Origin: Pseudodesulfovibrio piezophilus C1TLV30
GTDB taxonomy: Bacteria > Desulfobacterota > Desulfovibrionia > Desulfovibrionales > Desulfovibrionaceae
DNA: 32,000 nucleotides
NCBI RefSeq assembly: GCF_000341895.1
Contig: NC_020409.1
Location: 1,920,001-1,952,000 of the forward strand
Direction of reading: 5' to 3'
In this document: positions 2,576-28,831 of the stretch, piece by piece
How the letters are laid out: every line of letters begins with the position of its first letter
Numbering within the stretch: position 1 is the stretch's first letter
Position numbers and translations under genes: made by a program
The notes under the pieces: generated by a model
Told to the model about the DNA's origin: nothing
The model's database searches: none
What the model saw: the letters and a program-made list of their open reading frames with translations, nothing else

Positions 2576-3583
2576 TCAGGTCAATTTTGCCTTGGACAAA
2601 ACAGAAATCAGCATAGTCAGCATCTCTGGATCGTGTGCGGTCTTACGACTTTTAATGCGTGTCAAAGCTTCGAATGGGGTCAGCTTTTTAACAAGGGATG
2701 TTCCGCGAATAAGGTTGTCATATTCATTACATAGGGAAAGGACCTTGACATAGGACGGTAGCATCTCTCCATGAGCACCAGAAGGATACCCCGACCCATC
2801 CATGCGCTCATGGTGGAAGAGAATACATTGCAGCGTCTCCTGAGGCAGCGGCAGGGAAGAACAAACCCCCACACCGAGGGCAGGATGGGATTCGACCAAT
2901 TCCCTTTCCTCCTTGTTCAGGCTTTCTCTGTGCCGGAAAAAAAGGGTCTCTGGCAACTCCAACTTCCCGATATCGTGAAACATGGCCCCCATACCGACTG
3001 CGACCAACAGGTCTTCATCCTTCACATATGTGTTCATCACGCTCAGAGTCATGACCATGACTCCGATTCCGTGCAAAAAGACTTCCTCACCCTCCGCAAT
3101 AAACCGGGTCAACTCCCGTATGGCATCAGCCCGCGCCAGGAATTTCAAACTGCTGTTGACCAACTTCTTGATTTTGAGGAACTCCCGCTTACCGGTCCTC
3201 TTGGGCAAATCGCGAGTAAAAGCCTCACGGGCCAGAGAAACCGCAGCATCATTCCAGACCCGTGCCCGCTCTGCAACAGGGATGTCTTCGTCATATAAAA
3301 GTTGGAGGAGATTCTCCTGAAGATAGGAAGTATAGGCAGCGTAATCTTCAACTTTAACATACAAATGATCCACGCCGAGACGAGTCAGCCGACTTTTGTG
3401 AATGTCAGCCAGGAGCACGCCCTTTTCCGCATAAAGGACATAGGTTTCCCCCTGCTTGAGAAACAGGGCAAACCCAACTCTCCGCGACGGGATGACCATG
3501 AAAGGTGAAATTTTAAAGACCCCGAACCGTTTCTTGCGAACAGGCTTGGCTTCGTCTACCGAGGCACTGTTTTCCATATGCAT
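2576..3583 (-). CDS. HD-GYP domain protein (putative c-di-GMP phosphodiesterase) with an uncharacterised N-terminal domain
   Basis: The motifs MFHDIGKLELPE...ESHPALG...FHHERMDGSGYPSG give the HD and HHExxDGxGYP signatures. I prefer the start at 3583 (MHMENSA) because AGGGA lies 4 nt upstream. The track ORF start at 3634 has no RBS. Confidence 0.9.
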   Translation of the reverse strand: MHMENSASVDEAKPVRKKRFGVFKISPFMVIPSRRVGFALFLKQGETYVLYAEKGVLLADIHKSRLTRLGVDHLYVKVEDYAAYTSYLQENLLQLLYDEDIPVAERARVWNDAAVSLAREAFTRDLPKRTGKREFLKIKKLVNSSLKFLARADAIRELTRFIAEGEEVFLHGIGVMVMTLSVMNTYVKDEDLLVAVGMGAMFHDIGKLELPETLFFRHRESLNKEERELVESHPALGVGVCSSLPLPQETLQCILFHHERMDGSGYPSGAHGEMLPSYVKVLSLCNEYDNLIRGTSLVKKLTPFEALTRIKSRKTAHDPEMLTMLISVLSKAKLT

Positions 3584-3643
3584 ATTTCCCTGGGGCGCCG
3601 AATCGTCACGGCCCCGAGGTGCATTGCAAATCATTCGGGCAGA

Positions 3644-3745
3644 CTCTTGGCAACCCGGCTATCTTGTATCCCGGCATTATTGCCGAAAAAGACCCGTGGC
3701 TTTCCGTCCCCGCCTCACGACGGGTTTGGCTTTCTCTTCGGCAGG
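3644..3745 (-). ncRNA. Candidate c-di-GMP-I (GEMM-I) riboswitch aptamer in the leader of the HD-GYP gene
   Basis: The minus-strand RNA 3736->3644 is GAGAAAGCCAAACCCGUCGUGAGGCGGGGACGGAAAGCCACGGGUCUUUUUCGGCAAUAAUGCCGGGAUACAAGAUAGCCGGGUUGCCAAGAG. Blocks GCCAAA, a 6-bp hairpin CCCGUC-GUGA-GGCGGG with a GNRA loop, GACGGAAAGCC, and AGCCGGGUUGCC line up with the Vibrio Vc2 aptamer as I recall it (GGCAAA, CCAUUC-GAAA-GAGUGG, GACGCAAAGCC, AGCGGGGUUACC). No covariance-model search was run. Confidence 0.5.
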
Positions 3746-6608: not shown

Positions 6609-7367
6609 ATGAGGCAACGCATTCTGATATTTTTTTTATGCTGGATACTTTCGACTGTTGCATTCACCTCGATTACGCCTGCTGCCGAGCCTTCCCAAGT
6701 GGACTTCTCCTTTGGCACAGCCTCGCCCCCGGATACTTTCACACACAAATACCAGAAGGTTTTATTGACAGAAGCATTCAAACGAAACGGGCTTCAACTC
6801 CATGTAATCTACATCCCGAATCTCAAAGAGATGACCAGCCAGGTTAACCAAATGATATTGGATGGGGATGTCCACAGGGTAGGCTCTCTGACCGGACGAG
6901 ACGGATATCCCGGATATGTCAGAATCAACTTCTCCACGCACACCTTGGAATGGGGCGCATACGCATGCTCTCCTCTCCCTGTGAAAGGGTGGAAAAGCCT
7001 GTCCACGCTTGGCATGACAGTTGGCTACAGAAAGGGTAACTTCATCAGCAAAAAGAACTTGACCGGGACTGTCCCCCCCCGGTTCCTTCACGAATTTCAA
7101 ACCCAACTTGATGGTTTCAAAGCTTTGGCAGCGGGAGAAATCGCGGTTTTCGTCATGGCAAATCAATATACGGCTCAGGAGTTTCTCTGCTCAAAACAGT
7201 TCAGCGACTCTGGAATACGATTACTGTGCGTTTTATCCAAAAAGAATATGTACGCTTATTTCTCCAAAAAACATGCAGCCCTGGCTCCTCGGATAGCGAA
7301 GACTCTCAAGAACATGAAACAGCAGGGGTTTTTTGAAAAGACCCTGCTCAAAATAATGGGCCAATAA
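6609..7367 (+). CDS. Periplasmic substrate-binding protein (family 3 / amino-acid-ABC-type SBP fold), orphan
   Basis: It has an N-terminal signal peptide (MRQRILIFFLCWILSTVAFTSITPAAE), the RBS GGGAGG upstream, and a length and pattern typical of SBP_bac_3-like proteins. No permease or ATPase genes are adjacent. Confidence 0.65.
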   Translation: MRQRILIFFLCWILSTVAFTSITPAAEPSQVDFSFGTASPPDTFTHKYQKVLLTEAFKRNGLQLHVIYIPNLKEMTSQVNQMILDGDVHRVGSLTGRDGYPGYVRINFSTHTLEWGAYACSPLPVKGWKSLSTLGMTVGYRKGNFISKKNLTGTVPPRFLHEFQTQLDGFKALAAGEIAVFVMANQYTAQEFLCSKQFSDSGIRLLCVLSKKNMYAYFSKKHAALAPRIAKTLKNMKQQGFFEKTLLKIMGQ

Positions 7368-11160: not shown

Positions 11161-12495
11161 TCAAAAACCGAACCGGACATACTCCTTGTCCAGGCGGTTG
11201 ATCAGTTGAATATATCGGTAGTTCCCCTTCAGTTGCCCTTCTTCCACCAACTGATAGCCTTTGCTTCTGCACTCAGGGCAGGCGTCAATGGGTATTTCCA
11301 CGCCGAGACAAAGCGGACCGGAATCCGCACGCGTTTCGATTTTGAGCAGCCCTCGGCACTTCGGGCAAACGGTCAGGTTTTCCTGCTGAACCTCATTGAT
11401 GCCATCCGTATCGTAAAAGATCTGCCGATGTCGTACAAAAGTGTCCCCGGAGAGAATTCCCTGTGAAGTATCCTTGCCGCTTTTGAACGCTGGTGGGTCA
11501 AAGTACAACCGTGGGAGTTGGGAGCACAGCTCCTCAATGTATTCCGTCGTCCGGGAGGATTGACGTACCTGTTCAGGATTGTAATTCGGCTCCCGGATAT
11601 GGGAAAAGTCCACCCCGGCCATGGCGAGGCAAATGCCCAGATTAATATATGGCAAGGCTCCCTGAATGGAGTAGCCACCCTCCAAGACAGCGATATCCGG
11701 CCTGAGCATCTCATTGAGCGCGGCATAGCCACGGGCAGAAAAGTTCATGTTGGTGATAGGGTCGGAAAAGTGGTTGTCCTGACCTGCCGAATTGATGATG
11801 ATGTCCGGTTTGAAATCATCGAGAATGGGCATGACCACCCTTTCCATGGCCATGAGAAATCCTTCATCCGAAGTATTGGGGGGCAGCGGGATGTTCAGAG
11901 TCCGCCCCATGGCACCGGGACCACCCAACTCCTGGGGAAAACCGGAGCCGGGATACAGTGTGCGCCCGTCCTGATGAATGGAGATGAACAACGTCTCGGG
12001 ATCATGCCAGTAGACATCCTGCGAACCATCACCGTGATGGCAGTCGGTGTCAATAATAGCCACACGCTTATGCCCGTATGTTTCCCGGATATGTTCGATC
12101 ATCACGGCTTCGATGTTGACAGTACAGAAGCCACGCGACCCGTGAACGACCTTCATGGCATGATGACCGGGAGGACGAACCATGGCAAAGGCCCGTTCGC
12201 GTTCCCCCGTCATGACGAGATCAGCGGCTTTCATGGCCCCCCCCGCCGAGATGCGATGGGAGCGCGTCGTGACACTGCCACCATCAGGAAACAGGAAATG
12301 CACCCTCTCCAGGTCTTCGATAGCGGCAACATCCGGTTTGTATTCTCCTATTCCCTCGATGTCGAAAAGCCCTTCTTCCCGCAATTGGTCCTGCGTGTAG
12401 AGAAGCCGCTCCTGCCGTTCGGGATGCGTGGGGGAAATGGCCCAATCAAAAGCCGGGAAAAAAATGATTCCAAGTGAGTTCTGTGCCTTGAGCAT
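11161..12495 (-). CDS. Histone deacetylase-family (arginase/deacetylase fold) amidohydrolase with C-terminal zinc-ribbon
   Basis: The motifs RPPGHHA, IIDTDCHHGDGSQDV and LEGGYS are the class-defining HDAC/AcuC/acetylpolyamine amidohydrolase motifs. The C-terminus has CPKC...CPEC. The RBS GGGAGA lies inside the end of the upstream gene, with a 3-nt gap. Confidence 0.9.
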   Translation of the reverse strand: MLKAQNSLGIIFFPAFDWAISPTHPERQERLLYTQDQLREEGLFDIEGIGEYKPDVAAIEDLERVHFLFPDGGSVTTRSHRISAGGAMKAADLVMTGERERAFAMVRPPGHHAMKVVHGSRGFCTVNIEAVMIEHIRETYGHKRVAIIDTDCHHGDGSQDVYWHDPETLFISIHQDGRTLYPGSGFPQELGGPGAMGRTLNIPLPPNTSDEGFLMAMERVVMPILDDFKPDIIINSAGQDNHFSDPITNMNFSARGYAALNEMLRPDIAVLEGGYSIQGALPYINLGICLAMAGVDFSHIREPNYNPEQVRQSSRTTEYIEELCSQLPRLYFDPPAFKSGKDTSQGILSGDTFVRHRQIFYDTDGINEVQQENLTVCPKCRGLLKIETRADSGPLCLGVEIPIDACPECRSKGYQLVEEGQLKGNYRYIQLINRLDKEYVRFGF

Positions 12496-12498
12496 GAT

Positions 12499-14199
12499 CT
12501 ATCTCCCAACCAGGGTTGCGACAACACCAGGCCGAACCTGACATTTGACCCGAATGTTCCTGCCGACCTGATTCATTCCTTCAATCATGTTGAAGCTGGA
12601 GGAATGGGTTACCTGGGCATCTTCCCGCTCCAGGGAAACCCCCATGGAATCGAGCTGCCTGGTCAAATGATTTACGGCGTCCTTCTTCGCATCCCCCAGG
12701 TCATAGGACGAGTGAATATTCTCACGGTGGGACAAGGAAGGAATGAACAGGACATGTCGTTGAGTATCTGCGAACAACTCCAATTCCCATGTTGTGCGAG
12801 TCAGGGCTGCACCGATGGCGTTGGCCACATCGTAGTTTTCCGGTACTTCCGTGGCAAGCTGGAAGCACTCGTGAAGCGATTCCCGGAGCGCTTGAGCCGG
12901 TCCACCCATGAGATAGACTTTTTTCGGGACCACACGCTTGTCTTCCACCAGTTCATGAATGGTGTAGACCGGCTTGGAATTGATCTCATCAGTCAGTTCC
13001 CGAGTTGCCGAGTGAATGGCTTGAGCCGCGTAATCCACGGCAGCACCGGCCACATCCTGACCGGACATGGAATACCGGGCCGCAAAAGTATCGAGAGCCT
13101 TTGCCGACGCCTCGATATCCCCAACCTGTCCAACTCCTGTCACGTTAAGCGCATCGGTCAGAGTCACCCTCGCCCCACCGAAACACACGGATGGGCCAAA
13201 CCTGTTAGGGCCGACACGGACGTCTTTCCCGACCACGGAGATGGCGGAATCCCCACCAATTCCGATAGATCGGACCTTCAGAGCAGAGACAAGCGTTGGG
13301 TGGGAGCCAATGGCAATGCCCTCCCGTTCGATAAGGGGCGCGCCATCGGCAAACACGGCGATATCAGTGGTGGTTCCTCCGATATCGAGAATGACTGAAT
13401 CCAGAAAGATATCTGTCAAAGCGACAATCCCCATGACCGAGGCGGCCGGACCGGAAAAGATGGACTGCACCGGCATGGTACGCGATTGCGGCAAAGGCAT
13501 GGTACCGCCATCCGCCTTGAGCATGTTGACCTTGACGTGAGCCAACCCCATATCATGGAGAGCCTTTTCCACCGCCGTGGCAAAGTCATTATAGAGACGC
13601 CAAACCGAACAATTGAAATAGGCGGTAGCCACCCGTCGCGGAAAATTGAGCGCACCGCCCAATTGATGTCCCAAAGTGACGAAATCCGCGTGATCGCATT
13701 GATCGGTTTCACGACACTGACAAATGGAACGACGAATAACGTTTTCATGGCGCGGATTGCGCGTGGAAAATTTACTGACTGCGGCGAAGACACGCACCCC
13801 ATTGGCGCGGCAGGCATCCACAGCATCACTGAGTTGACGGGAGGAAAGGGACTTTATTTCATTCCCCCGATGATCAATGGACCCTTCAACAACATGAAAA
13901 TCCCGGCACAGCATGGAGTTATGCGGATCAATGCCGGGACCGGACGAAACAATGACTCCCACATCTTCGGTCTGCCCCTGGACAATGGCATTGGTCGACA
14001 AGGTCGTGGACAAATTAAGCTGTGTCACCGCATCCTTGTCCACTTTACCCAAAATGGTTTCCAAAGCCTCAGTCACGGACCGCAACAGATCATCATGTCG
14101 AGTCGGCACCTTGCAGGAAGCCATCACGCCTACACCCGTATCCACAGTGATGGCGACAGCATCGGTATGCGTCCCGCCAACATCAATTCCAAGTAACAT
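12499..14199 (-). CDS. Hydantoinase/oxoprolinase-family (HyuA-like, ASKHA-fold ATPase) protein
   Basis: The N-terminal MLLGIDVGGTHTDAVAI and the later LDIGGTTTDIAVF phosphate-binding motifs are typical of Hydantoinase_A. I chose the start at 14199 because GAAGGAGAG lies directly upstream; the track ORF begins at 14226. Confidence 0.88.
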   Translation of the reverse strand: MLLGIDVGGTHTDAVAITVDTGVGVMASCKVPTRHDDLLRSVTEALETILGKVDKDAVTQLNLSTTLSTNAIVQGQTEDVGVIVSSGPGIDPHNSMLCRDFHVVEGSIDHRGNEIKSLSSRQLSDAVDACRANGVRVFAAVSKFSTRNPRHENVIRRSICQCRETDQCDHADFVTLGHQLGGALNFPRRVATAYFNCSVWRLYNDFATAVEKALHDMGLAHVKVNMLKADGGTMPLPQSRTMPVQSIFSGPAASVMGIVALTDIFLDSVILDIGGTTTDIAVFADGAPLIEREGIAIGSHPTLVSALKVRSIGIGGDSAISVVGKDVRVGPNRFGPSVCFGGARVTLTDALNVTGVGQVGDIEASAKALDTFAARYSMSGQDVAGAAVDYAAQAIHSATRELTDEINSKPVYTIHELVEDKRVVPKKVYLMGGPAQALRESLHECFQLATEVPENYDVANAIGAALTRTTWELELFADTQRHVLFIPSLSHRENIHSSYDLGDAKKDAVNHLTRQLDSMGVSLEREDAQVTHSSSFNMIEGMNQVGRNIRVKCQVRPGVVATLVGR

Positions 14200-14437
14200 T
14201 CTCTCTCTCCTTCTCAGGCGGGACAAGACAACAGCATTCTCGGTCCCTTCTCAAGCCTGCCGCTTTTTCCAAGCGTCATCGAGATTTAGCACTGGCCACG
14301 CCATGGGTGCAACCCGGAAAACGGCGAATGGTCGTATTGAAGGGGGGAACGGTTCAGCAGCACGGCCGGTCGAGGCGGCTCTGACCGCCCGTGTTCCCTC
14401 TGAATACGGGGACATGGATCGGGCGCACTGCGAATCC

Positions 14438-15896: not shown

Positions 15897-16319
15897 ATGC
15901 TCTGGTTTCATCCGGCTCTCCAGATATTCGCCACCTTGGTGGGGCTGTACGCGGCCTCCCTTGGAATGAAACGATTTCTGGCCCGACATTTTGAAATGCG
16001 CACACGCTTTCCCTGGAAACGGCATGTGACAGTGGGACAGATAGCCCTGTCCCTCTGGTTACTCGGCATGATAGGCGGCATGACCGTCGCCCGCCTCAAA
16101 TGGGAAGTGAACTTCGTGACAGGCGCTCACTACAAAACAGCGTTCGCCATGCTCCCGCTTCTCATTCTGGGGGGCGCTTCAGGCCTCTATATGGACAAGA
16201 AAAAGGCTCGCAGAAAAATACTGCCCCTGGCCCACGCTGCTTGCAACCTGATATTACTTGCCCTGGCGTTATGGCAATTCAGGACAGGCTTTCAGGTCAT
16301 CAAGGATTTCATCCTGTAA
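15897..16319 (+). CDS. DUF4079-like integral membrane protein
   Basis: Four predicted hydrophobic helices are present and the sequence begins MLWFHPALQIFATLVGLYA. The RBS GGGAGG lies 5 nt upstream of the ATG at 15897; the track ORF starts at a TTG at 15882. Confidence 0.65.
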   Translation: MLWFHPALQIFATLVGLYAASLGMKRFLARHFEMRTRFPWKRHVTVGQIALSLWLLGMIGGMTVARLKWEVNFVTGAHYKTAFAMLPLLILGGASGLYMDKKKARRKILPLAHAACNLILLALALWQFRTGFQVIKDFIL

Positions 16320-16377
16320 GCAACCTTGCGTTTTTCCCGTTGCAAAGGTATCCGTTTTCTCCACTCAGGGAGAAATT

Positions 16378-16686
16378 GTGTCCGACGAATTCAACATATT
16401 CACCGATGCCCCCGCCATTGAGCCTCTTTCGGAAGAAAATGCGCCATGCGTGGGGTGTGGCTGGTGTTGTCTTCGGGATCCATGCTCGGAATCTCACCGC
16501 CGTTATGGCTACACCAAACGTTGCCCTGAGCTGCTCTGGGACCCAAAAAACACCCGCTATATCTGCAAGTTGATGCTCGACCCGAAGTACGGCGAAGACG
16601 TTCGCCGATCTCAACACGCCGGACAAGGCTGTTACGCCCCACTCAATGGATGGAGACTGGACGTTCGAGACCGGGATGACGTATGA
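16378..16686 (+). CDS. Small Cys-rich protein with CxxCxxCC motif (YkgJ/UPF0153-like zinc/iron-chelating domain)
   Basis: The GTG start at 16378 is preceded by AGGGAGAAATT. CVGCGWCC matches the CxxCxxCC signature, and further Cys residues lie downstream. The upstream part of track ORF 16258.. overlaps the preceding gene and looks non-coding. Confidence 0.55.
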   Translation: MSDEFNIFTDAPAIEPLSEENAPCVGCGWCCLRDPCSESHRRYGYTKRCPELLWDPKNTRYICKLMLDPKYGEDVRRSQHAGQGCYAPLNGWRLDVRDRDDV

Positions 16687-16943: not shown

Positions 16944-18848
16944 ATGATCAAGATCCGCAAAGATGACGACAGACGAGGTCCCTCCAATGGACCGCGCAAA
17001 GACGATAGACGCGATAATTTTACCCGCAATGACAGGGATGACCGTCCTCGCCGAGACGATCGGTCAGAAAGGCCTCGTCGAGAGGACAGAACCGATCGAC
17101 CACGCCGAGACGACAGAACCGATCGCCCGCGTCGTGATGACAGAACCGATCGACCGCGTCGTGATGAAAGCCGAGGCCCACGCAAGTTTGAGAAACGAGG
17201 CGGAGGCGGACGGGGCAAACGTGACTTCTTCGGCAATCTCCCTCCCCGCGACGAAGAGTCGTTCGTCGACAAATCCCAGGCGGTTTCCGAACACCGTTTC
17301 AATGATATTTCCGACATCGACAATCAGGTCCTGAATCTGCTTGAGAAGCGTGCATTCCTTATCCGCAAGGAAGGCGCATGGCGTAAATCACGCCAAAAAT
17401 CCCTGGTCGACCCCAAGCTCGAAAAGCTGCTGCGCGGCTCCTTTGACAAACACGCCGGGGAACTTGGCCTTGATGCTAAACTGACCAAACAGCTTTTCAC
17501 CCTGCTCAACCAGTTTTCCCTGGCTGACATTCGCAAGAAATTCGAAGGCGAAGGATACAAGCTTGCCCCGCGTGTGGAAGCGGTTTCTGCTTCCATCACC
17601 GGCCCTCGTTCCTTCCGTTTCACACGAATGCTCCTGACACTCGCAGCAAGCTCCGGCGCTGCGGTTAAACTGGCTCCAGTGACAATGAACGCCCCCAACA
17701 AGGATCTGGCCAAGGCCCTCAAGCAGGCCGGAGCACCCATCTCCTGGGATGATGATTTCATCCGCAATGAAGGAGACCGTACCCTCGGTTTTGAAGGCAA
17801 CATGATCTTTGTTGGTGAAGACCACTTCAACTTCTATATGTTGCTCTGCCTCGCTCTGGGCCACGCAGGTCGTTGCAAATTCACCGGCAAGCCAGCCCTT
17901 CAGCTGCTGGATATCGCCACCATGAACAGGGTGCTGCCCAAATTGGGAGCACGCCTTGTCCCCATGAATCCGAACAACCCCGGACTTCCCGCACGCCTTG
18001 AGTGCGGTGGTCCCATGGACGAGGAAATAACCCTGCCCGGCGGCATTGATCCTGATTTCGCAGCCGCCCTGACCCTGGCGGCATGGTCCTTTCCCGGAGG
18101 CCTGACCATCCGGGGACTGAACCAGACGGCCAGGGAACGTGTTGCCGAAGCCGTGGATGTTCTGACGATCTGCGGCATCAAGGCCACCCTGGAAAAAGAT
18201 TCCGTGACGGTTTCCGATGGCATTCCCGTCATTGAAGAACGCCCGCTCCTGCCCCTGTCTGTCCGGCTCAACTCCATTCTTCTGGCCCTGCCTGCCATGG
18301 CTGGCGGGTCTATCAACATCGCTGGTTCCTGGCCCAAGTCCGACAAGGGAGACCGGGTTCTGGAACAGCTCCGCGCTCTGGGACTTCGCATTGATGTCGC
18401 CACGGAAAACATCATTGCGACCATGGAAGGTGAATTACCTGAATCCGCGACCATTACCCTCGGCGAAAGCGAGGAAATGCAGCCCCTGGCTCTGGCCTTG
18501 GCCATGAAGCTGGGTAACGCCACCCTCACCGGTGAACTGAGCGAAACAGGAGCCGAACTTCTCGACCGCACAGGGGTCGCTTACGAAAAAACCGAAAGCG
18601 GCGTGGAGATCAAATCCGGCGAACGGTCGTGGGAAGGCACATGGTTCAGCCCGGAACCTATCTGGTCCATGGGATGCGCCCTGGCTGCCTACTCGGTGCC
18701 CGGCATCAAGCTGGAAAACCACGGAGAAGTGACCTCCACCTGGCCCGAGTTCTGGAACTTCTACAACTCCCTGCCCTCCGGCAAGATGAAACCCAAGCCG
18801 GTCAAGGAAACCAAAGATGACACACGCAGAAGAATCAAAATCCGGTGA
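16944..18848 (+). CDS. Chimeric protein: N-terminal Arg/Asp-rich 9-aa repeats + chorismate-mutase-like helical segment + EPSP synthase (EPT fold)-like body with degenerate catalytic motifs
   Basis: The RBS GGAAAG lies upstream of the ATG. Residues 30-74 are five 9-aa repeats: DRDDRPRRD, DRSERPRRE and three copies of DRTDRPRRD. The segment ISDIDNQVLNLLEKRAFLIRKEG...DPKLEKLL...GLDAKLTKQLFTLL resembles an AroQ chorismate mutase. The rest parallels AroA: ITGPRSFRFTRMLLTLAA vs PGSKSxSNRxLLLAAL; LALGHAG vs LGNAGTA; C-terminal VTSTWPEFWNFY. Confidence 0.85.
   Translation: MIKIRKDDDRRGPSNGPRKDDRRDNFTRNDRDDRPRRDDRSERPRREDRTDRPRRDDRTDRPRRDDRTDRPRRDESRGPRKFEKRGGGGRGKRDFFGNLPPRDEESFVDKSQAVSEHRFNDISDIDNQVLNLLEKRAFLIRKEGAWRKSRQKSLVDPKLEKLLRGSFDKHAGELGLDAKLTKQLFTLLNQFSLADIRKKFEGEGYKLAPRVEAVSASITGPRSFRFTRMLLTLAASSGAAVKLAPVTMNAPNKDLAKALKQAGAPISWDDDFIRNEGDRTLGFEGNMIFVGEDHFNFYMLLCLALGHAGRCKFTGKPALQLLDIATMNRVLPKLGARLVPMNPNNPGLPARLECGGPMDEEITLPGGIDPDFAAALTLAAWSFPGGLTIRGLNQTARERVAEAVDVLTICGIKATLEKDSVTVSDGIPVIEERPLLPLSVRLNSILLALPAMAGGSINIAGSWPKSDKGDRVLEQLRALGLRIDVATENIIATMEGELPESATITLGESEEMQPLALALAMKLGNATLTGELSETGAELLDRTGVAYEKTESGVEIKSGERSWEGTWFSPEPIWSMGCALAAYSVPGIKLENHGEVTSTWPEFWNFYNSLPSGKMKPKPVKETKDDTRRRIKIR
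17031..17165 (+). repeat. Five in-frame 27-bp tandem repeats (coding)
   Basis: Units start at 17031, 17058, 17085, 17112 and 17139. The last three (GACAGAACCGATCG...) all encode DRTDRPRRD but differ at synonymous positions. Confidence 0.9.
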
Positions 18849-19122
18849 AGCGCGACTGAGCGATGATATCCCCACTCTTGAAGCCGAAGCCGCACAGCTG
18901 ACTCTTGAACGAGAAAGAACCGCGAAACGAGTGCGGGAATTGATGGAGGCGGAAAATCCCAAAGAGGGAATCTACCACCACAAGGAAATATTCGAATTGC
19001 AGCAGCAAAAACTTCGCTTGGACGTGGACATCAAGTTCCGCACCAACAAGATCAACCGGATCACCCTCGGCATCGAGGAAGGCGGTCCGAGTGAAGGCCT
19101 TGAAAAGGGCTTTCTCTTCTAG
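18817..19122 (+). CDS. Hypothetical 101-aa coiled-coil protein, overlapping the end of the upstream gene by 32 nt
   Basis: AAGGAA lies 7 nt upstream of the ATG at 18817. The composition is charged and heptad-like (LEAEAAQLTLERERTAKRVRELMEAE...ELQQQKLRLDVDIKF). A clean terminator follows at 19151. Confidence 0.5.
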   Translation: MTHAEESKSGEARLSDDIPTLEAEAAQLTLERERTAKRVRELMEAENPKEGIYHHKEIFELQQQKLRLDVDIKFRTNKINRITLGIEEGGPSEGLEKGFLF

Positions 19123-19150: not shown

Positions 19151-19187
19151 GCAGGGACGATTTGTGAGAGGATCGTCCCTGCTTTAT
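19151..19187 (+). terminator. Rho-independent terminator
   Basis: An 11-bp stem is formed by GCAGGGACGAT (19151..19161) and ATCGTCCCTGC (19172..19182), followed by TTTAT. Confidence 0.75.
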
Positions 19188-23657: not shown

Positions 23658-24800
23658 GTGCTCAGTACAAAATTCGCCATACCGGACATAATCTTCGGAC
23701 ATGGGTCCATCACTCACCTCCCCCAATGTGCGCAGCGCGTCGGCGCTCGACGGATATTCTTTGTCAGTGACAAAGGACTTGAGGAAGCGGGGTGGGTTGA
23801 CCGCGTGCGGGGTATCCTCAGGGCAAATAATCTTGATTGCGTCTACTTCAACAACGTCAATTCCAACCCCCGTGACAGTCAGGTGCACGAGGGAGCCAGA
23901 CTCTACCGAGAGGAAGGGTGCGACGTCATCATTGCTCTCGGGGGGGGCAGCCCCATGGACGCAGCCAAGGGTATCGGCATTATCGTCGGCAACGGAGGGC
24001 AGATACGAGATTACGAAGGGGCAAACCGTATCATGCGCCCCCTGCCTCCCATGATCCTGATTCCGAGTACTGCGGGCAGCAGCTCCGACATCTCCCAATA
24101 CTGTATCATCACCGACGTCAAACGGCAGGTCAAGATGTCCATCATCAGCCGTTCGCTCGTTCCCAACATTTCCATCATCGACCCACAGATCCTCGTAACC
24201 CAGAACAGGAGCCTGATCCTGGCCGCCAGCATAGATGCACTGGCACACGCGGTGGAGTCCTATGTTTCAAAACTCGCTTCGCCATTTACCGAAATGCAGG
24301 CACTCAAGGCCATTGATCTGATCACGGCAAACATCCTTCCCGCTGCCGAAGAAAAAGACATTAAGGCGCTGGAACAACTTTCCATCGCCGCCACTGCGGC
24401 AGGCATGTCATTCAGCAATGCAGGATTGGGTTCCCTGCACGCCATAGCCCACTCTCTTGGCGGAATTTATGATGTCCTGCATGGCTGGGTTCACCCGGTC
24501 CTGCTTCCCTCGGTCATGCGTTACAATATGCCTTCCTGTGTCGAAAAAATGGGGGACATCGGTAGACAAATCGCCGGAGCCAGACTGTGTCCGGACAAAC
24601 ATACCGCCCAAATCGGTATCGATACACTGGAACAGCTCTTCAAGGATTTGAACCTCAATACCCAACTTCGACAACTTCTCCCGGATAAGTCGACCTTGGA
24701 AGACATCTGCAAAACCGCGACCCACGATGCCTGCCACCTGACCAACCCGAGAGCAGCCGATTGGCAGGACCTGATGTCCATATGCGAGGAGGCATGGTGA
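23658..24800 (+). CDS. Iron-containing (group III) alcohol dehydrogenase, paralogue 1
   Basis: The GTG start is preceded by GAGGAG 8 nt upstream. The sequence GGGSPMDAAKGI...IPSTAGSSSD...DALAHAVESY...HAIAHSLGG...HG carries Fe-ADH signatures. Confidence 0.93.
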   Translation: MLSTKFAIPDIIFGHGSITHLPQCAQRVGARRIFFVSDKGLEEAGWVDRVRGILRANNLDCVYFNNVNSNPRDSQVHEGARLYREEGCDVIIALGGGSPMDAAKGIGIIVGNGGQIRDYEGANRIMRPLPPMILIPSTAGSSSDISQYCIITDVKRQVKMSIISRSLVPNISIIDPQILVTQNRSLILAASIDALAHAVESYVSKLASPFTEMQALKAIDLITANILPAAEEKDIKALEQLSIAATAAGMSFSNAGLGSLHAIAHSLGGIYDVLHGWVHPVLLPSVMRYNMPSCVEKMGDIGRQIAGARLCPDKHTAQIGIDTLEQLFKDLNLNTQLRQLLPDKSTLEDICKTATHDACHLTNPRAADWQDLMSICEEAW

Positions 24801-25996
24801 TGACCCCGACCACTTTGGCCGACCTGATCGGCATTGAGCACTCAAAACTCGGCTTTTTCCAGGAATTACAGCATACGATTGAAGAGCTGAAAACCTCCAG
24901 CCAAAAGTCGGAAAACCAGCGCCGGGAAATTGCTGCCATTCTTGACGGTATCACTGATATCATGATGGTCCTGTCCGAGGACCTGCGCATCATTGCCGTC
25001 AACCATGAATTTGAACAACTCTTCGGGAAGGGCAAACAACACAAAGGCAAATACTGCTACACACTCTTTCGCGATACCAACGCTCCCTGCCCGGAATGTC
25101 CGGCCTTTCGCTCTCTTTCCACCAACAAGGTGTGCAAGGAAACAGCCATATTCCGCATAGGCAACCGGAACCGCCAGTTTGAAATGATCGCTTCCCCAGT
25201 CAAGATACCTGACCAGTCCGGCAACCGTGTCCTGATTTTCAAACGGGATGTGACACTCGAAAAAGAATACCAGGCTAAATATTATCAGGCGCAAAAGATG
25301 GCAACCGTCGGAACCCTGGCGACGGGCGTCGCCCATGAGGTGAATAATCCGCTCATGGCCATTTCCGGTTTTGCCGAAGGTATTCAGCGACGGCTCTCGA
25401 AACTTGACGGACAGATTCCCGACGAGGTCATTGACGACTTCGCCGACTGCACAGGCATCATTCTCAAGGAATGCAATCGATGCCAGGAAATTGTCCGCAG
25501 CCTGCTCAACTTCGGACACCCCAGGTCATCGGTCTTTACCGTAGTGTTTCTCAATTCAATTATTCGCGAGACGATCGATCTTCTCGGATTTCACCTGAAA
25601 AAATCAACCAATCTGACGCTCAACGTCACTCTCCAGCCTGAGTTGGCGTTGATCAAAGCCGATGAACCGCAACTCAAACAGGTCATTCTCAACCTGCTGA
25701 CCAACGCGAGCGACGCCCTGGACGGCGAGGTCGGAACGATTACCGTCAATACTTTCCACAAGAACGACGACATGATCGCCATTGAAGTGAAAGATACCGG
25801 CTGTGGCATTTCTGCAGACATCAAAGACAAACTTTTCGACCCCTTTTTCACCACAAAACCCGTGGGAAAGGGAATCGGCATCGGGTTGTCCACCTGCTAC
25901 AATATCGTCAAGGAACATAAAGGGGAGATCGAAGTCACCAGTGAAGTCGGCAAAGGGTCGAGTTTCATTGTTTCCCTCCCGATTCAACAGGATTAG
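24800..25996 (+). CDS. Cytoplasmic PAS-domain sensor histidine kinase
   Basis: The ATG at 24800 overlaps the adh stop (TGATG), and GAGGAGG lies 7 nt upstream. It has a PAS region with the Cys cluster CYTLFRDTNAPCPECPAF, an H-box (ATGVAHEVNNPL) and N/G1/G2 boxes (LLTNASDAL, DTGCGI, GKGIGIGLS). I see no transmembrane segment. Confidence 0.9.
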   Translation: MTPTTLADLIGIEHSKLGFFQELQHTIEELKTSSQKSENQRREIAAILDGITDIMMVLSEDLRIIAVNHEFEQLFGKGKQHKGKYCYTLFRDTNAPCPECPAFRSLSTNKVCKETAIFRIGNRNRQFEMIASPVKIPDQSGNRVLIFKRDVTLEKEYQAKYYQAQKMATVGTLATGVAHEVNNPLMAISGFAEGIQRRLSKLDGQIPDEVIDDFADCTGIILKECNRCQEIVRSLLNFGHPRSSVFTVVFLNSIIRETIDLLGFHLKKSTNLTLNVTLQPELALIKADEPQLKQVILNLLTNASDALDGEVGTITVNTFHKNDDMIAIEVKDTGCGISADIKDKLFDPFFTTKPVGKGIGIGLSTCYNIVKEHKGEIEVTSEVGKGSSFIVSLPIQQD

Positions 25997-25997
25997 C

Positions 25998-27341
25998 ATG
26001 CAGACAAGTTACAGAGTGCTCGCGGTCGACGATGAGGAAAGCATCCTCAAACTGCTCGAACGGGAACTGAATTCCGACGAACGAATCGTCCATACGGCCA
26101 AAAGCGCACAACAGGCCAGAAAAATGGTCGCTAAAAACGAGTATGATGTCCTCATTCTCGATATCAAGCTCCCGGATGGAGACGGCCTGGACCTCTTTAC
26201 CGAATTCAAGGCAAAATTGCAGGATATCGAAATCATCCTCATCACCGGGCATGGCGATATTGACAGTGCGGTCGAAGCCATGCGGATCGGAGCCTATGAC
26301 TATATTACCAAACCCTTCAAGCTGGACCGGTTGGAATTGGTCCTCGATCGTGCTTTCCAGCGAGTCTGGCTGCAACGTGAAAACAAGGGATTACGCCATA
26401 CTCACGAAGCTTCTGACGATGATTCCCTGATCGGCAAGTCCGATCCTATTAAGCATATCCGATTTCTCATCGGCAAACTCCGTCCTTCGGAGATCCCCCT
26501 ACTCATTACGGGCGAAAGCGGCGCGGGCAAGGATGTGGTGGCTCGCACGGTCCACAGTCAGAGCAAACGTGCTTCCCATCCCCTGATTATCAAGAACTGC
26601 GCCATGCTCCAGCGCGAACTGGTCCGCTCCGAGTTATTCGGACACAGAAAAGGTGCATTCACCGGTGCTTCCGAAGCTCGAGAGGGGCTGATCTCCCTGG
26701 CCCACAAAGGCACTCTGTTTCTCGATGAGATAGGCGACCTGCCTGAGGATGTGCAAGCCTCCCTGCTCAGGGTCATTGAAACCAAGACATATCGCCGTAT
26801 GGGTGAAAATGAAGAACGCAGGGCTGATGTCCGATTCCTGTTCGCAACCAATCGAAATCTGGCAAAGGCAGTGGAAAACGGCCAATTTAACGAAGCGCTT
26901 TTCCATCGAATCAACGTCTTCAATATCCACATCCCTCGCCTGAAAAAACGCAAGGAAGACATTCCGCTGCTGGTGGCCTATTTCCTCGGCCGACTCAGCG
27001 GCGGCGGCGATCAATGCGTGGTAGCGGACAAAGCCATGCAGCTTCTGCTCAGCTATGACTGGCCGGGTAATGTGCGCGAACTGAGAAACGTGCTTGAGCG
27101 GGCATTGATTCTGACGGACAATAACGTCATTACCGATCAGGCTCTGCCCAAGGAAATTCTCAATTGCAGCGCCACATGCGAAGACTCTCCGCCGCCCATG
27201 TCGCTGGAGACTGTTGAGAAGGAACACATCCTGCGCATCCTGTCCTACTATGACAACAACAAACAAAAAGCATCGGAAGTTCTTGGAATAGGAAGAAAAA
27301 CTCTTTACAGAAAAATTCTCAAATACGGTATAGAAAGCTAA
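25998..27341 (+). CDS. Sigma-54-dependent response regulator (NtrC family: REC + AAA+ + Fis-type HTH)
   Basis: The ATG lies 1 nt after the kinase stop. The REC domain has VLAVDDEE...VLILDIKLPDGDG. The AAA+ domain has GESGAGKDVVA, SELFGHRKGAFTGA and RVIETKTYRRMG. The C-terminal HTH is ASEVLGIGRKTLYRKI. Confidence 0.95.
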   Translation: MQTSYRVLAVDDEESILKLLERELNSDERIVHTAKSAQQARKMVAKNEYDVLILDIKLPDGDGLDLFTEFKAKLQDIEIILITGHGDIDSAVEAMRIGAYDYITKPFKLDRLELVLDRAFQRVWLQRENKGLRHTHEASDDDSLIGKSDPIKHIRFLIGKLRPSEIPLLITGESGAGKDVVARTVHSQSKRASHPLIIKNCAMLQRELVRSELFGHRKGAFTGASEAREGLISLAHKGTLFLDEIGDLPEDVQASLLRVIETKTYRRMGENEERRADVRFLFATNRNLAKAVENGQFNEALFHRINVFNIHIPRLKKRKEDIPLLVAYFLGRLSGGGDQCVVADKAMQLLLSYDWPGNVRELRNVLERALILTDNNVITDQALPKEILNCSATCEDSPPPMSLETVEKEHILRILSYYDNNKQKASEVLGIGRKTLYRKILKYGIES

Positions 27342-27510
27342 AAAAGAACCTGGAAGTCACTTTGACCCATCAGCCTCAAGCTGTGTGTCATTACGACACT
27401 TACCATAAAATAATCTACAAATTCGTATCATTACTCGTATTGTTTATAGTTATGACAAAGCCACCCCCCCACCGAGTATGGGACAAAATGCCCCACACAC
27501 GGAAAGCACA

Positions 27511-27532
27511 GTGTTCAAATAAAGTTGAACAC
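27511..27532. promoter_or_regulatory. Palindrome GTGTTCAA-N6-TTGAACAC upstream of the sigma-54 promoter (candidate activator site)
   Basis: It has 8-bp perfect arms and ends 26 nt upstream of the -24 element. A second, weaker palindrome, GTGTC-N5-GACAC, lies at 27385..27399. Confidence 0.35.
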
Positions 27533-27557
27533 CCTGAAAACAATGATGAAAATCCAT

Positions 27558-27573
27558 TGGCACGCTATCTGCT
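27558..27573 (+). promoter_or_regulatory. Sigma-54 (-24/-12) promoter for the second Fe-ADH
   Basis: TGGCACGCTATCTGCT compares with the consensus TGGCACG-N4-TTGCW, with the GG and GC dinucleotides at the exact canonical spacing. It lies about 77 nt upstream of the adh ATG and directly downstream of an NtrC-type activator gene. Confidence 0.7.
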
Positions 27574-27649
27574 GACAGAGGTCTCAGCCTCAGTTGGTAA
27601 CCAGTACGGATATTCCGTCATTCGTTAACTTCAATTCAGGAGATGTATC

Positions 27650-28831
27650 ATGGCTGTACAGGAACAAGTTTATGGATTTTTCATTCCCAGTGTCACTCTC
27701 GTCGGCATCGGTGCTTCCAAGGAAATTCCCGGCAAGATTCGCGACCTGGGCGGTAAGAAACCCCTTATCGTAACTGATCAGGGTATTGTCAAAACGGGTA
27801 TTCTGAAACAGATCACCGATCTGCTCGACGATGCCAAGATGTCCTATGAAGTCTATGACAAGACCATCCCGAACCCGACTGACGCCAATGTCCACGAAGG
27901 TGTCGATGTCTACAAAAAAGCCAAGTGCGACAGCCTGATCACCTTGGGTGGCGGTTCATCCCATGATTGTGGTAAAGGCATCGGCCTGGTTGTTTCCAAC
28001 GGCGGCAAGATTCATGATTACGAGGGCGTTGACCAGTCCACAAAGCCCCTGCCGCCTTACGTTGCAGTGAACACCACTGCCGGAACAGCTTCCGAAATGA
28101 CTCGTTTTTGCATCATCACCGACTTGTCCAGAAAGGTGAAGATGGCTATCGTTGATTGGCGTGTCACCCCAGGTATCGCTCTTGATGATCCGATGTTGAT
28201 GGTCGGCATGCCGCCGTCCCTGACTGCCGCCACCGGCATGGATGCGCTGACTCACGCTGTGGAAGCATACGTCTCCACCATTGCCAACCCCATGACCGAC
28301 GCATGTGCAGAAAAGGCCATCGAACTCATCTTCACGCACCTGCGCCCGGCAGTTGCCAACGGTCAGGATATCAATGCTCGCGAAGGCATGTGTTTCGCTC
28401 AGTATCTCGCAGGTATGGCGTTCAATAACGCCTCCCTGGGCCACGTCCACGCCATGGCTCACCAGCTTGGCGGTTTCTACGACCTGCCCCATGGCGAATG
28501 CAATGCGATCCTCCTGCCCCATGTTGAAAAATTCAACCTTATTGCCAAAGTCGATCGTTTCGCCAAGCTGGCCGAAATCATGGGTGAAAACCTCGACGGT
28601 TTGTCCCCCATCGAAGCAGCCGAAAAATGCCTTGTGGCCATCCGTAGACTTTCCTCCGATGTCGGCATACCTTCCGGTTTGGTCGAACTCGGCAAACGCT
28701 ACGGCAAGGAAGTCAGCCCCAAGGACATCAAGGTCATGACCGGCAACGCACAAAAAGACGCCTGCGGTCTGACCAACCCGCGTTGTCCCACCGATATGGA
28801 TGTCGACGAGATCTACAAAGCAGCCATGTAA
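27650..28831 (+). CDS. adh: Iron-containing (group III) alcohol dehydrogenase, paralogue 2
   Basis: The RBS is CAGGAG. The sequence GGGSSHDCGKGIG...VNTTAGTASEMT...DALTHAVEAY...HAMAHQLGG...HGECNA carries classic Fe-ADH motifs. Confidence 0.95.
   Translation: MAVQEQVYGFFIPSVTLVGIGASKEIPGKIRDLGGKKPLIVTDQGIVKTGILKQITDLLDDAKMSYEVYDKTIPNPTDANVHEGVDVYKKAKCDSLITLGGGSSHDCGKGIGLVVSNGGKIHDYEGVDQSTKPLPPYVAVNTTAGTASEMTRFCIITDLSRKVKMAIVDWRVTPGIALDDPMLMVGMPPSLTAATGMDALTHAVEAYVSTIANPMTDACAEKAIELIFTHLRPAVANGQDINAREGMCFAQYLAGMAFNNASLGHVHAMAHQLGGFYDLPHGECNAILLPHVEKFNLIAKVDRFAKLAEIMGENLDGLSPIEAAEKCLVAIRRLSSDVGIPSGLVELGKRYGKEVSPKDIKVMTGNAQKDACGLTNPRCPTDMDVDEIYKAAM

Follow-up and report, generated by a model that had tools for sequence, protein, structure and literature searches.

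Does a 634-amino-acid (aa) protein that joins a chorismate mutase (CM)-like domain to a body of the 5-enolpyruvylshikimate-3-phosphate (EPSP) synthase fold still carry out a step of the shikimate pathway, or has it been put to another use? The question arises at a gene of Pseudodesulfovibrio piezophilus C1TLV30, which lies in a 32,000-nucleotide stretch of DNA (assembly GCF_000341895.1, contig NC_020409.1, positions 1,920,001 to 1,952,000 of the forward strand) that we analyzed as a whole and call the window. A preliminary description, made from the letters alone, had divided the open reading frame (ORF) into a charged, repetitive N-terminal tail, an AroQ-type CM-like segment, and a two-lobed region of the EPSP synthase/MurA, or enolpyruvyl transferase (EPT), fold. 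All three parts are there: the ORF itself, its repeats, the Pfam CM_2 and NCBIfam TIGR01356 models, and AlphaFold with Foldseek agree on them. The description had also judged the active site of the EPT body to be degenerate. The loss goes further than claimed, since no residue of the AroA active site is conserved in the family to which this protein belongs. Three features had been overlooked: the partial degeneracy of the CM-like domain, an RRR(I/V) motif at the C terminus, and a small gene apparently coupled to the large one.

We aligned 334 family proteins with MAFFT and reduced them to 199 representatives with less than 70% identity, to which all counts out of 199 refer. Escherichia coli AroA and E. 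coli CM (EcCM) were aligned to the family hidden Markov model; all numbered residues of the two references were verified to be as expected. Over AroA residues 10-417, the family profile gives an alignment of 106 bits, so that the homology of the EPT body to AroA is secure. When the AlphaFold model was searched with Foldseek, the top matches were all EPSP synthases, with a best template modeling (TM) score of 0.82-0.83 (2bjb, 0.82; E. coli AroA, 0.78); MurA was among the matches of the body but ranked lower. The EPT fold is thus supported, although the Pfam model EPSP_synthase (PF00275) gives 20.5 bits, under its cutoff of 22.8. The aroA equivalog TIGR01356 aligns to aa 233-610 (E = 1.4e-12) with 47.1 bits and falls far short of its cutoff of 287.

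None of the 21 AroA residues that bind shikimate-3-phosphate (S3P) or phosphoenolpyruvate (PEP) or act in catalysis is conserved. K22, R27, G96, R100, N336, R344, and H385 are kept in 0 of 199 representatives, R344 being deleted; R124 is kept in 1, T97 and S170 in 3 each, S23, D313, and K340 in 5 each, Q171 and K411 in 7 each, R386 in 10, N94 in 15, S169 in 20, and E341 in 36. The window protein has F224, R225, M229, E292, H294, F295, and Y298 where AroA has K22, S23, R27, N94, G96, T97, and R100. It has L322 at R124; D369, P370, and D371 at S169-Q171; a gap or E510 at D313; and T529 at N336. Farther along, K340 and R344 fall in gaps, and E341, H385, R386, and K411 are replaced by G530, P572, I573, and S598; the RVKExDR segment of AroA is deleted. 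All eight cationic residues that bind the phosphates and carboxylates of PEP and S3P are gone, with no invariant polar cluster in their place. Some motif pairings made earlier by eye have to be moved. LGNAGTA had been matched to LGHAGRC and the DHR area to EEMQPL, but HMMER places LGNAGTA at FVGEDHFNF (aa 289-297) and DHR at E571-P572-I573, and EEMQPL corresponds to the D313 region. The pairing of GPRS with PGSKS stands in one of two alignments, where it matches K22/S23, and fails in the other.

Could the cleft have been remodeled for enolpyruvyl transfer or other chemistry on a different substrate, as the preliminary description had allowed? EPT-fold enzymes with other substrates exist, MurA among them, and some cleft positions have acquired new, moderately conserved identities: Pro at S169 (151/199), Tyr at R100 (128/199), and Asp or Glu at N94 and Q171 (each above 70%). 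However, the former cleft columns average 1.57 bits, against 1.90 in the remaining body, with a permutation p of 0.93 for the cleft being at least as conserved. This is the opposite of the pattern expected of an enzyme, and by this measure the cleft is under relaxed constraint. The conserved columns of the body are mostly Gly, Pro, and Leu that determine the fold, plus R337, P349, and E353 at 100%. Since the cleft is less conserved than the remaining body and its phosphate and carboxylate ligands are lost without replacement, we consider an enzyme acting on a different substrate very improbable. The EPT body would rather be a pseudoenzyme, its fold held by purifying selection and its S3P/PEP cleft dismantled and left to drift.

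Database records point in another direction. Homologs appear as "chorismate mutase" (also the NCBI family name), "3-phosphoshikimate 1-carboxyvinyltransferase," "EPSP synthase/chorismate mutase," or "hypothetical protein." Such names, together with the presence of both folds, would favor an ordinary bifunctional EPSP synthase and chorismate mutase that has merely diverged. Against it stand the complete loss of AroA residues, the deleted RVKExDR segment, the low aroA score, and the relaxed cleft, and also the location of the canonical genes in relatives. In Desulfovibrio hydrothermalis, the housekeeping genes form an aldolase-DHQS-pheA-aroA-tyrA-trp cluster (PMC4162548), and the same cluster is found in D. 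desulfuricans 27774 (PMC5701242); the chorismate pathway genes are essential in D. vulgaris Miyazaki, according to the literature. By analogy with these relatives, we infer that a canonical aroA sits elsewhere in the P. piezophilus genome. No aromatic-pathway gene lies within the 32-kb window. As far as its residues can tell, the EPT body does not work as an EPSP synthase; the bifunctional enzyme can be set aside as extremely improbable, and the earlier view that this is probably not the housekeeping aroA gains support. On the same grounds the carboxyvinyltransferase name is to be read as wrong for the homologs, and the name "chorismate mutase" is doubtful.

Is the protein real at all? A miscalled ORF, a pseudogene, or an assembly chimera might come to mind in view of the marginal Pfam scores and of an N terminus that is repetitive and low in complexity. 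Hundreds of full-length homologs with the same architecture and conserved termini, a conserved gene order, a high-confidence AlphaFold model, and in-frame differences in repeat number effectively refute such an artifact. About 100 close homologs were found, with identities of 70-80% in Pseudodesulfovibrio, about 52% in Salidesulfovibrio, 39% in Paucidesulfovibrio, and about 28-31% in Desulfovibrio. An exhaustive profile search over 1.84 billion representatives returned 246 clusters (50% identity) at E ≤ 1e-30; the 150 matches listed are all full-length (515-1103 aa). Every hit with a name is from the Desulfovibrionaceae (Desulfovibrio, Desulfocurvus, Pseudodesulfovibrio, and metagenome-assembled genomes [MAGs] from gut or termite). 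A scan of a genome collection with the family alignment likewise found only Desulfovibrio and Desulfovibrionaceae, with no model strain among them. Judged from sequence comparison, this is a real, old, and selected protein family, so far limited to the Desulfovibrionaceae. The word "chimera," used for it at first, is misleading for an architecture so old and so well conserved.

The AroQ-like domain has fared differently from the EPT body. AlphaFold gives three helices (aa 110-149, 157-173, and 178-194), and Pfam CM_2 (PF01817) matches aa 121-188 with 28.6 bits, above its gathering score of 27. We built a profile of this domain from 22 diverse family members and searched it against the Protein Data Bank (PDB). 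It matches 1ecm (E = 6.6e-5), 2d8d, the AroQδ enzyme MtCM of Mycobacterium tuberculosis, the Corynebacterium glutamicum CM, and PchB, with E values from 7e-5 to 5e-3 for 1ecm, 2d8d, and MtCM; the DAHP synthase entries 3nvt, 5gmu, and 5j6f (DAHP being the 7-phosphate of 3-deoxy-D-arabino-heptulosonate) are weak matches, and two designed coiled coils were judged spurious. The AroQ assignment made earlier is therefore sound. The family does not have the full AroQ catalytic set (R11', R28, K39, D48, R51, E52, S84, and Q88 in EcCM numbering). What it has is R136 at R28 and E160 at E52, each in 198/199, and, at K39, a positively charged residue that is Arg in most cases (about 150 R and about 10 K; R147 in the window protein). 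D48 is kept in 81/199 (41%). Around the same region, K161, D177, R/K182, F185, and Q/N189 are conserved as family-specific residues, and helix 3 ends short of the Q88 position. Because the buried-type Arg/Glu pair is 99% conserved, this pocket probably still acts, in binding or weak catalysis, and is more than a helical spacer.

These features raise the possibility that the protein is an active chorismate mutase, or an enzyme of related pericyclic chemistry, whose activation in cis would come from the EPSP synthase-like body, the small partner, or the C-terminal Arg motif. Such a protein would be a covalent version of the "junior partner" arrangement of MtCM with DAHP synthase and would make prephenate for a dedicated purpose. 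The conserved R28, E52, and cationic K39 equivalents, the short helix 3 as in AroQδ, and the NCBI family name all fit, and partner-bound MtCM is highly active without Lys39 and Gln88; the invariant C-terminal arginines could in principle stand in for R11' and R51. Yet R11' is kept in only 18/199 and R51 in 7/199, on top of the loss of Q88 and S84, and the best NCBIfam CM equivalog (TIGR01791) reaches 27 bits against 66.95 required, other CM models scoring lower. The relatives already encode CM in pheA and tyrA, and AlphaFold does not dock the C-terminal tail with confidence. Among the rivals of the reading that we favor below, an active mutase of this kind, a covalent counterpart of the MtCM pair, is the strongest; we regard it as possible but on balance unlikely.

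The other two overlooked features lie at the 3' end of the gene. A linker of about 29 aa follows the EPT body and ends in a near-universal (K/R)RR(I/V)(K/R/I)(I/V/A) motif, in which R629 is conserved at 92% and R630 at 96% family-wide. From locus to locus, these Arg residues are encoded by different synonymous codons, so it is the RRR(I/V) peptide that is under selection. A small ORF overlaps the end of the large gene in another frame. It is predicted to fold as a helical hairpin (H18-45 and H55-84, at a predicted local distance difference test [pLDDT] score of 96-98). Directly 3' of the large gene, 14 of the 19 loci fetched have such an ORF, 77-110 aa long and bearing the motif EDPxxG-FHAxEIHxxKQ; the overlap is usually 32-44 nucleotides (nt). 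The small partner has 118 database homologs, all unannotated, and every one with an organism name is from Desulfovibrio or Pseudodesulfovibrio. It has no Pfam, NCBIfam, or PADLOC match, and Foldseek against the PDB brought up nothing beyond generic helical hairpins, each with E > 1; the large protein has no match to a PADLOC defense system. The overlap, the recurring placement, and a terminator-like hairpin behind the small ORF suggest that the two genes form a translationally coupled bicistronic unit.

The N-terminal tail is of another kind. Arg makes up 29% and Asp 20% of its first 115 residues, for a net charge of +11, and AlphaFold2 leaves aa 1-107 disordered (pLDDT < 50). The five 9-aa repeats and the RGGGGRGKR run reported earlier were both recovered. 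Tandem Repeats Finder sees the repeats in the DNA as a 27-bp unit at 17076-17167 with 87% matches. A protein encoded on an 84.8-kb JGI contig (P0001) lacks exactly one 9-aa unit, DRTDRPRRD, and is otherwise identical to the window protein, a difference that points to a recent slippage-type change of copy number in the 27-bp repeat. A purine-rich stretch precedes the ATG. Pseudodesulfovibrio homologs have the N terminus MIKIRKDD conserved, and differences in repeat number stay in frame; both observations support the start codon and show the tail to be translated. Across the family, the N-terminal extension has a median of 22 aa and ranges from 0 to 459 aa; it is at least 40 aa in 74/199 and shorter than 40 aa in 125/199. 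Long tails are always of low complexity and rich in R, D, E, P, and G, with a charged fraction of 0.42, and 48 of 57 are net positive. Some Desulfovibrio homologs (P0139 and P0150) reach 1050-1100 aa, with R/D/P/G-rich low-complexity regions of about 450 aa at the N terminus and an extra Glu-rich insertion within the EPT body. We also noted a DEAD-box helicase, P0101, whose N-terminal ~330 aa consist of DDRPRRDDRTERPRFDR repeats, a unit nearly that of the tail studied here; the likeness may be low complexity that arose by convergence, or an RNA-related module that both proteins share. By its distribution, the Arg/Asp tail is a lineage-variable accessory and does not define the family.

This picture would be turned around if the protein were mainly a scaffold associated with nucleic acids, as in degradosomes, ribosomes, or condensates, with binding through its Arg-rich tails and with both enzyme-derived domains inert. 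The disordered, Arg- and Asp-rich tail with its RGG-like run, the recurrence of long and mostly net-positive extensions in the family, and the universal basic RRR(I/V) at the other end speak for it, as does the RNA helicase extension of P0101, built of very similar DRPRRDDRTERPRFDR repeats. But most representatives have an N-terminal extension of less than 40 aa, which means that the core function cannot reside in the tail. A polar pair conserved at 99% (R136/E160) is not expected in an inert helical module, no RNA-related genes lie around the locus, and the Pfam and NCBIfam scans found no known RNA-binding domain. We therefore hold an RNA scaffold to be unlikely. The tail is instead a slippage-prone accessory that may add electrostatic or RNA affinity in some lineages and would be dispensable for the core function. 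Two other roles for the tails were considered and found no support. In one, the basic N-terminal tail would compensate an acidic EPT body, but tail and body charge are uncorrelated (Spearman −0.05, p = 0.5), and the median body charge of −9 in the family is no different from the −10 of E. coli AroA. In the other, a tail would dock in the old cleft, but AlphaFold does not place the C-terminal tail with confidence, and the cleft is not preferentially conserved.

The reading we favor, at about an even level of confidence, is that of a dimeric ligand-binding scaffold or regulator, not an EPSP synthase, with the AroQ-like pocket as its functional center and the hairpin protein as its partner. The center of function would be the N-terminal CM-like helical domain which, if it behaves as known AroQ domains do, should form an intertwined homodimer and thus a two-bodied, four-tailed particle. 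The polar pocket of R136, R147, E160, K161, R/K182, and Q/N189 would suit a dicarboxylate such as chorismate or prephenate. Any mutase activity would be weak at best and dependent on a partner, in the way that AroQδ MtCM needs DAHP synthase, so that ligand binding or regulation is favored over bulk catalysis. As for the scaffold or output side of the complex, it would consist of the dead EPT body, the C-terminal RRR(I/V), and the cotranslated helical-hairpin protein.

Several observations weigh against this reading. Dimerization, the identity of the ligand, complex formation, and the regulatory role are all things we infer. Beside the carboxylate-binding R11' and R51, whose absence makes chorismate binding itself uncertain, S84 is kept in 20/199 and Q88 in 1/199, and all four residues are absent in the window protein. 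The CM-like helices have a pLDDT of only 76-89. In a distant Desulfovibrio clade, Pfam barely sees either domain and finds CM_2 in one of seven members (E = 0.0095). AlphaFold leaves the C-terminal motif unplaced (pLDDT, 46-73). The small ORF is absent 3' of the large gene in four Desulfovibrio or Desulfovibrionaceae MAG loci (L011, L012, L016, and L017), where an aminotransferase or an AMP ligase-like ORF comes directly next. Finally, full-text literature searches found no publication on the family, in keeping with the earlier remark that no function had been described.

The favored scaffold or regulator can be extended into a more specific proposal, to which we assign a rather low probability. 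Here the protein would be a signaling module made of two pseudoenzymes: the AroQ pocket would sense chorismate, prephenate, or a related dicarboxylate, and the EPSP synthase-like body, the hairpin partner, and RRR(I/V) would relay the signal by protein or RNA contacts, not by catalysis. The expandable tails would tune association with RNA or condensates. If true, this would be a new coupling of aromatic-precursor supply to cellular regulation in sulfate reducers.

Coordinates of the large gene, its parts, and the adjoining features (positions in the window)
Feature	Position	Strand	Basis or remark
Gene of the CM-like/EPT-like protein, 634 aa	16944..18848	+	ATG start; start backed by the MIKIRKDD N terminus kept in Pseudodesulfovibrio homologs
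N-terminal disordered polyampholyte tail, aa 1-107	16944..17264	+	Composition and AlphaFold; lineage-variable
Five 9-aa DRx(D/E)RPRR(D/E) repeats, aa 30-74	17031..17165	+	27-bp DNA period
KRGGGGRGKR, RGG-like segment, aa 84-93	17193..17222	+	Translation
AroQ-type CM-like three-helix domain, aa 110-194	17271..17525	+	Pfam CM_2, AlphaFold, alignment
EPT body, aa 205-611	17556..18776	+	pLDDT > 90; all 21 AroA active-site positions changed
C-terminal K/P/E-rich linker and basic motif RRRIKIR	18777..18845	+	RRRI codons at 18825-18836
Partner ORF, 101 aa, other frame, 32-nt overlap with 3' end of large gene	18817..19122	+	ORF, conservation
Terminator-like hairpin, 13-bp stem, then TTTAT	19151..19182	+	Between small ORF and aconitase gene

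Upstream of the large gene lie a glycosyltransferase family 9 (GT9) heptosyltransferase, a DUF4079 protein, and a Cys-rich ORF; downstream come an aconitase (NF005558 equivalog) and a PpiD-like chaperone. The Cys-rich ORF (16258-16686, +; …CVGCGWCCLRDPC…RCPELLWDP…YICK…), just 5' of the large gene, has no Pfam or NCBIfam match; its real start is probably internal, and it does not stand beside family members in other genera. An Rfam scan found no RNA element near the large gene. The order of large gene, small ORF, a methyltransferase or aminotransferase in some cases, aconitase, and ppiD is seen again in Paucidesulfovibrio and Desulfovibrio, and in the latter the gene pair adjoins sat/aprBA/qmoABC divergently; the apr neighborhood is absent from this window. 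A functional link of the pair to sat/aprBA/qmoABC or to aconitase-ppiD was considered and rejected: we read the arrangement as backbone synteny and not as an operon, and the terminator-like hairpin parts the pair from aconitase.

The rest of the window contains several features in their own right. A riboswitch of the c-di-GMP-I-GGC class (RF03167; 69.9 bits, gathering score 59) at 3645-3739 (−) lies directly 5' of an HD_5/HD-domain gene (2576-3634, −), which is probably a riboswitch-controlled HD-GYP-type phosphodiesterase or effector. A PAS histidine kinase and a sigma-54-dependent response regulator lie between two genes for iron-containing alcohol dehydrogenases at 23658-28831 (+), likely an alcohol- or aldehyde-responsive regulon. 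A 252-aa ORF beside uvrA (6609-7367, +) has no Pfam or NCBIfam match. A histone-deacetylase-family gene adjoins a hydantoinase/oxoprolinase-family gene at 11161-14226 (−), and a tRNA gene is found at 697-769 (−; Rfam RF00005, 70 bits).

Both folds in this protein are known, and the family sequences are already in databases, uncharacterized and variously misnamed. What is new is to find a completely dead EPSP synthase and a degenerate AroQ domain combined with a conserved RRR motif, a hairpin protein as dedicated partner, and tails that can expand, all restricted to a single bacterial family. With wrong or doubtful names on homologs in public records, a second, spurious aroA or CM may be counted when the metabolism of Desulfovibrionaceae is reconstructed, gut species and species that methylate mercury included. 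The family would be a clear bacterial case in which the fold of a pathway enzyme has outlasted the complete loss of its active site by hundreds of millions of years. Working out its function would lengthen the short list of understood bacterial pseudoenzymes and could reveal a lineage-specific form of regulation in a family of environmental and medical relevance. The repeat tail, with its variable copy number, can serve as a natural model of the expansion of disordered regions.

Among known systems, the closest in fold is EPSP synthase itself (AroA, EC 2.5.1.19; TIGR01356/PF00275; 2bjb and 1g6s). The two have a two-lobed EPT fold in common over about 400 residues, at TM scores of 0.78-0.82, as well as the Gly/Pro/Leu fold columns and D242. 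Unlike AroA, the family has all 21 S3P/PEP residues replaced or deleted, relaxed constraint in the cleft, and subthreshold scores; its body comes joined to charged tails and an AroQ-like domain, in a gene that stands outside the aromatic operon.

For the CM-like domain, the nearest parallels are AroQ chorismate mutases, especially AroQδ MtCM (Rv0948c). This enzyme has Arg in place of Lys39 and no homolog of Gln88, and it is a poor catalyst unless bound to its partner, DAHP synthase; once the partner repositions a loop and the C terminus, it is highly active despite the two missing residues (PMC7762937). The family domain resembles it in having three helices, near-invariant R28 and E52 equivalents, Arg at Lys39, a short helix 3, and no Gln88 homolog, and both are tied to a large partner derived from the shikimate pathway. 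In the family, the partner is covalently fused and itself catalytically dead, and the R11' and R51 equivalents are lost as well. MtCM retains these two as Arg18' and Arg58. Since R11' and R51 are gone in addition to Q88 and S84, the family domain is more degenerate than MtCM, and in the PDB search its profile was no closer to AroQδ than to EcCM. The Bacillus/Listeria-type DAHP synthases (AroA(Q); 3nvt, 5gmu, and 5j6f) likewise place an AroQ domain N-terminal to a larger protein of shikimate-pathway fold, and that CM-like domain acts as a ligand-sensing module (PMC5526877). Theirs is an active DAHP synthase with canonical CM residues, whereas the fold joined to the domain here is that of EPSP synthase and inactive.

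The Arg/Asp tail resembles the Arg-rich extensions of RNase E and DEAD-box helicases in composition, style of repeat, and predicted disorder, and the DDRPRRDDRTERPRFDR-type repeats of P0101 align with it. This likeness is compositional and does not speak for common descent or a shared function, and the tail is optional in the family. In concept, the protein compares with pseudoenzyme regulators of the HisZ type. HisZ is a paralog of aminoacyl-tRNA synthetases that regulates HisG. By analogy, the protein at this locus would likewise be a paralog of a pathway enzyme that has kept its fold, lost catalysis, and remained under selection.

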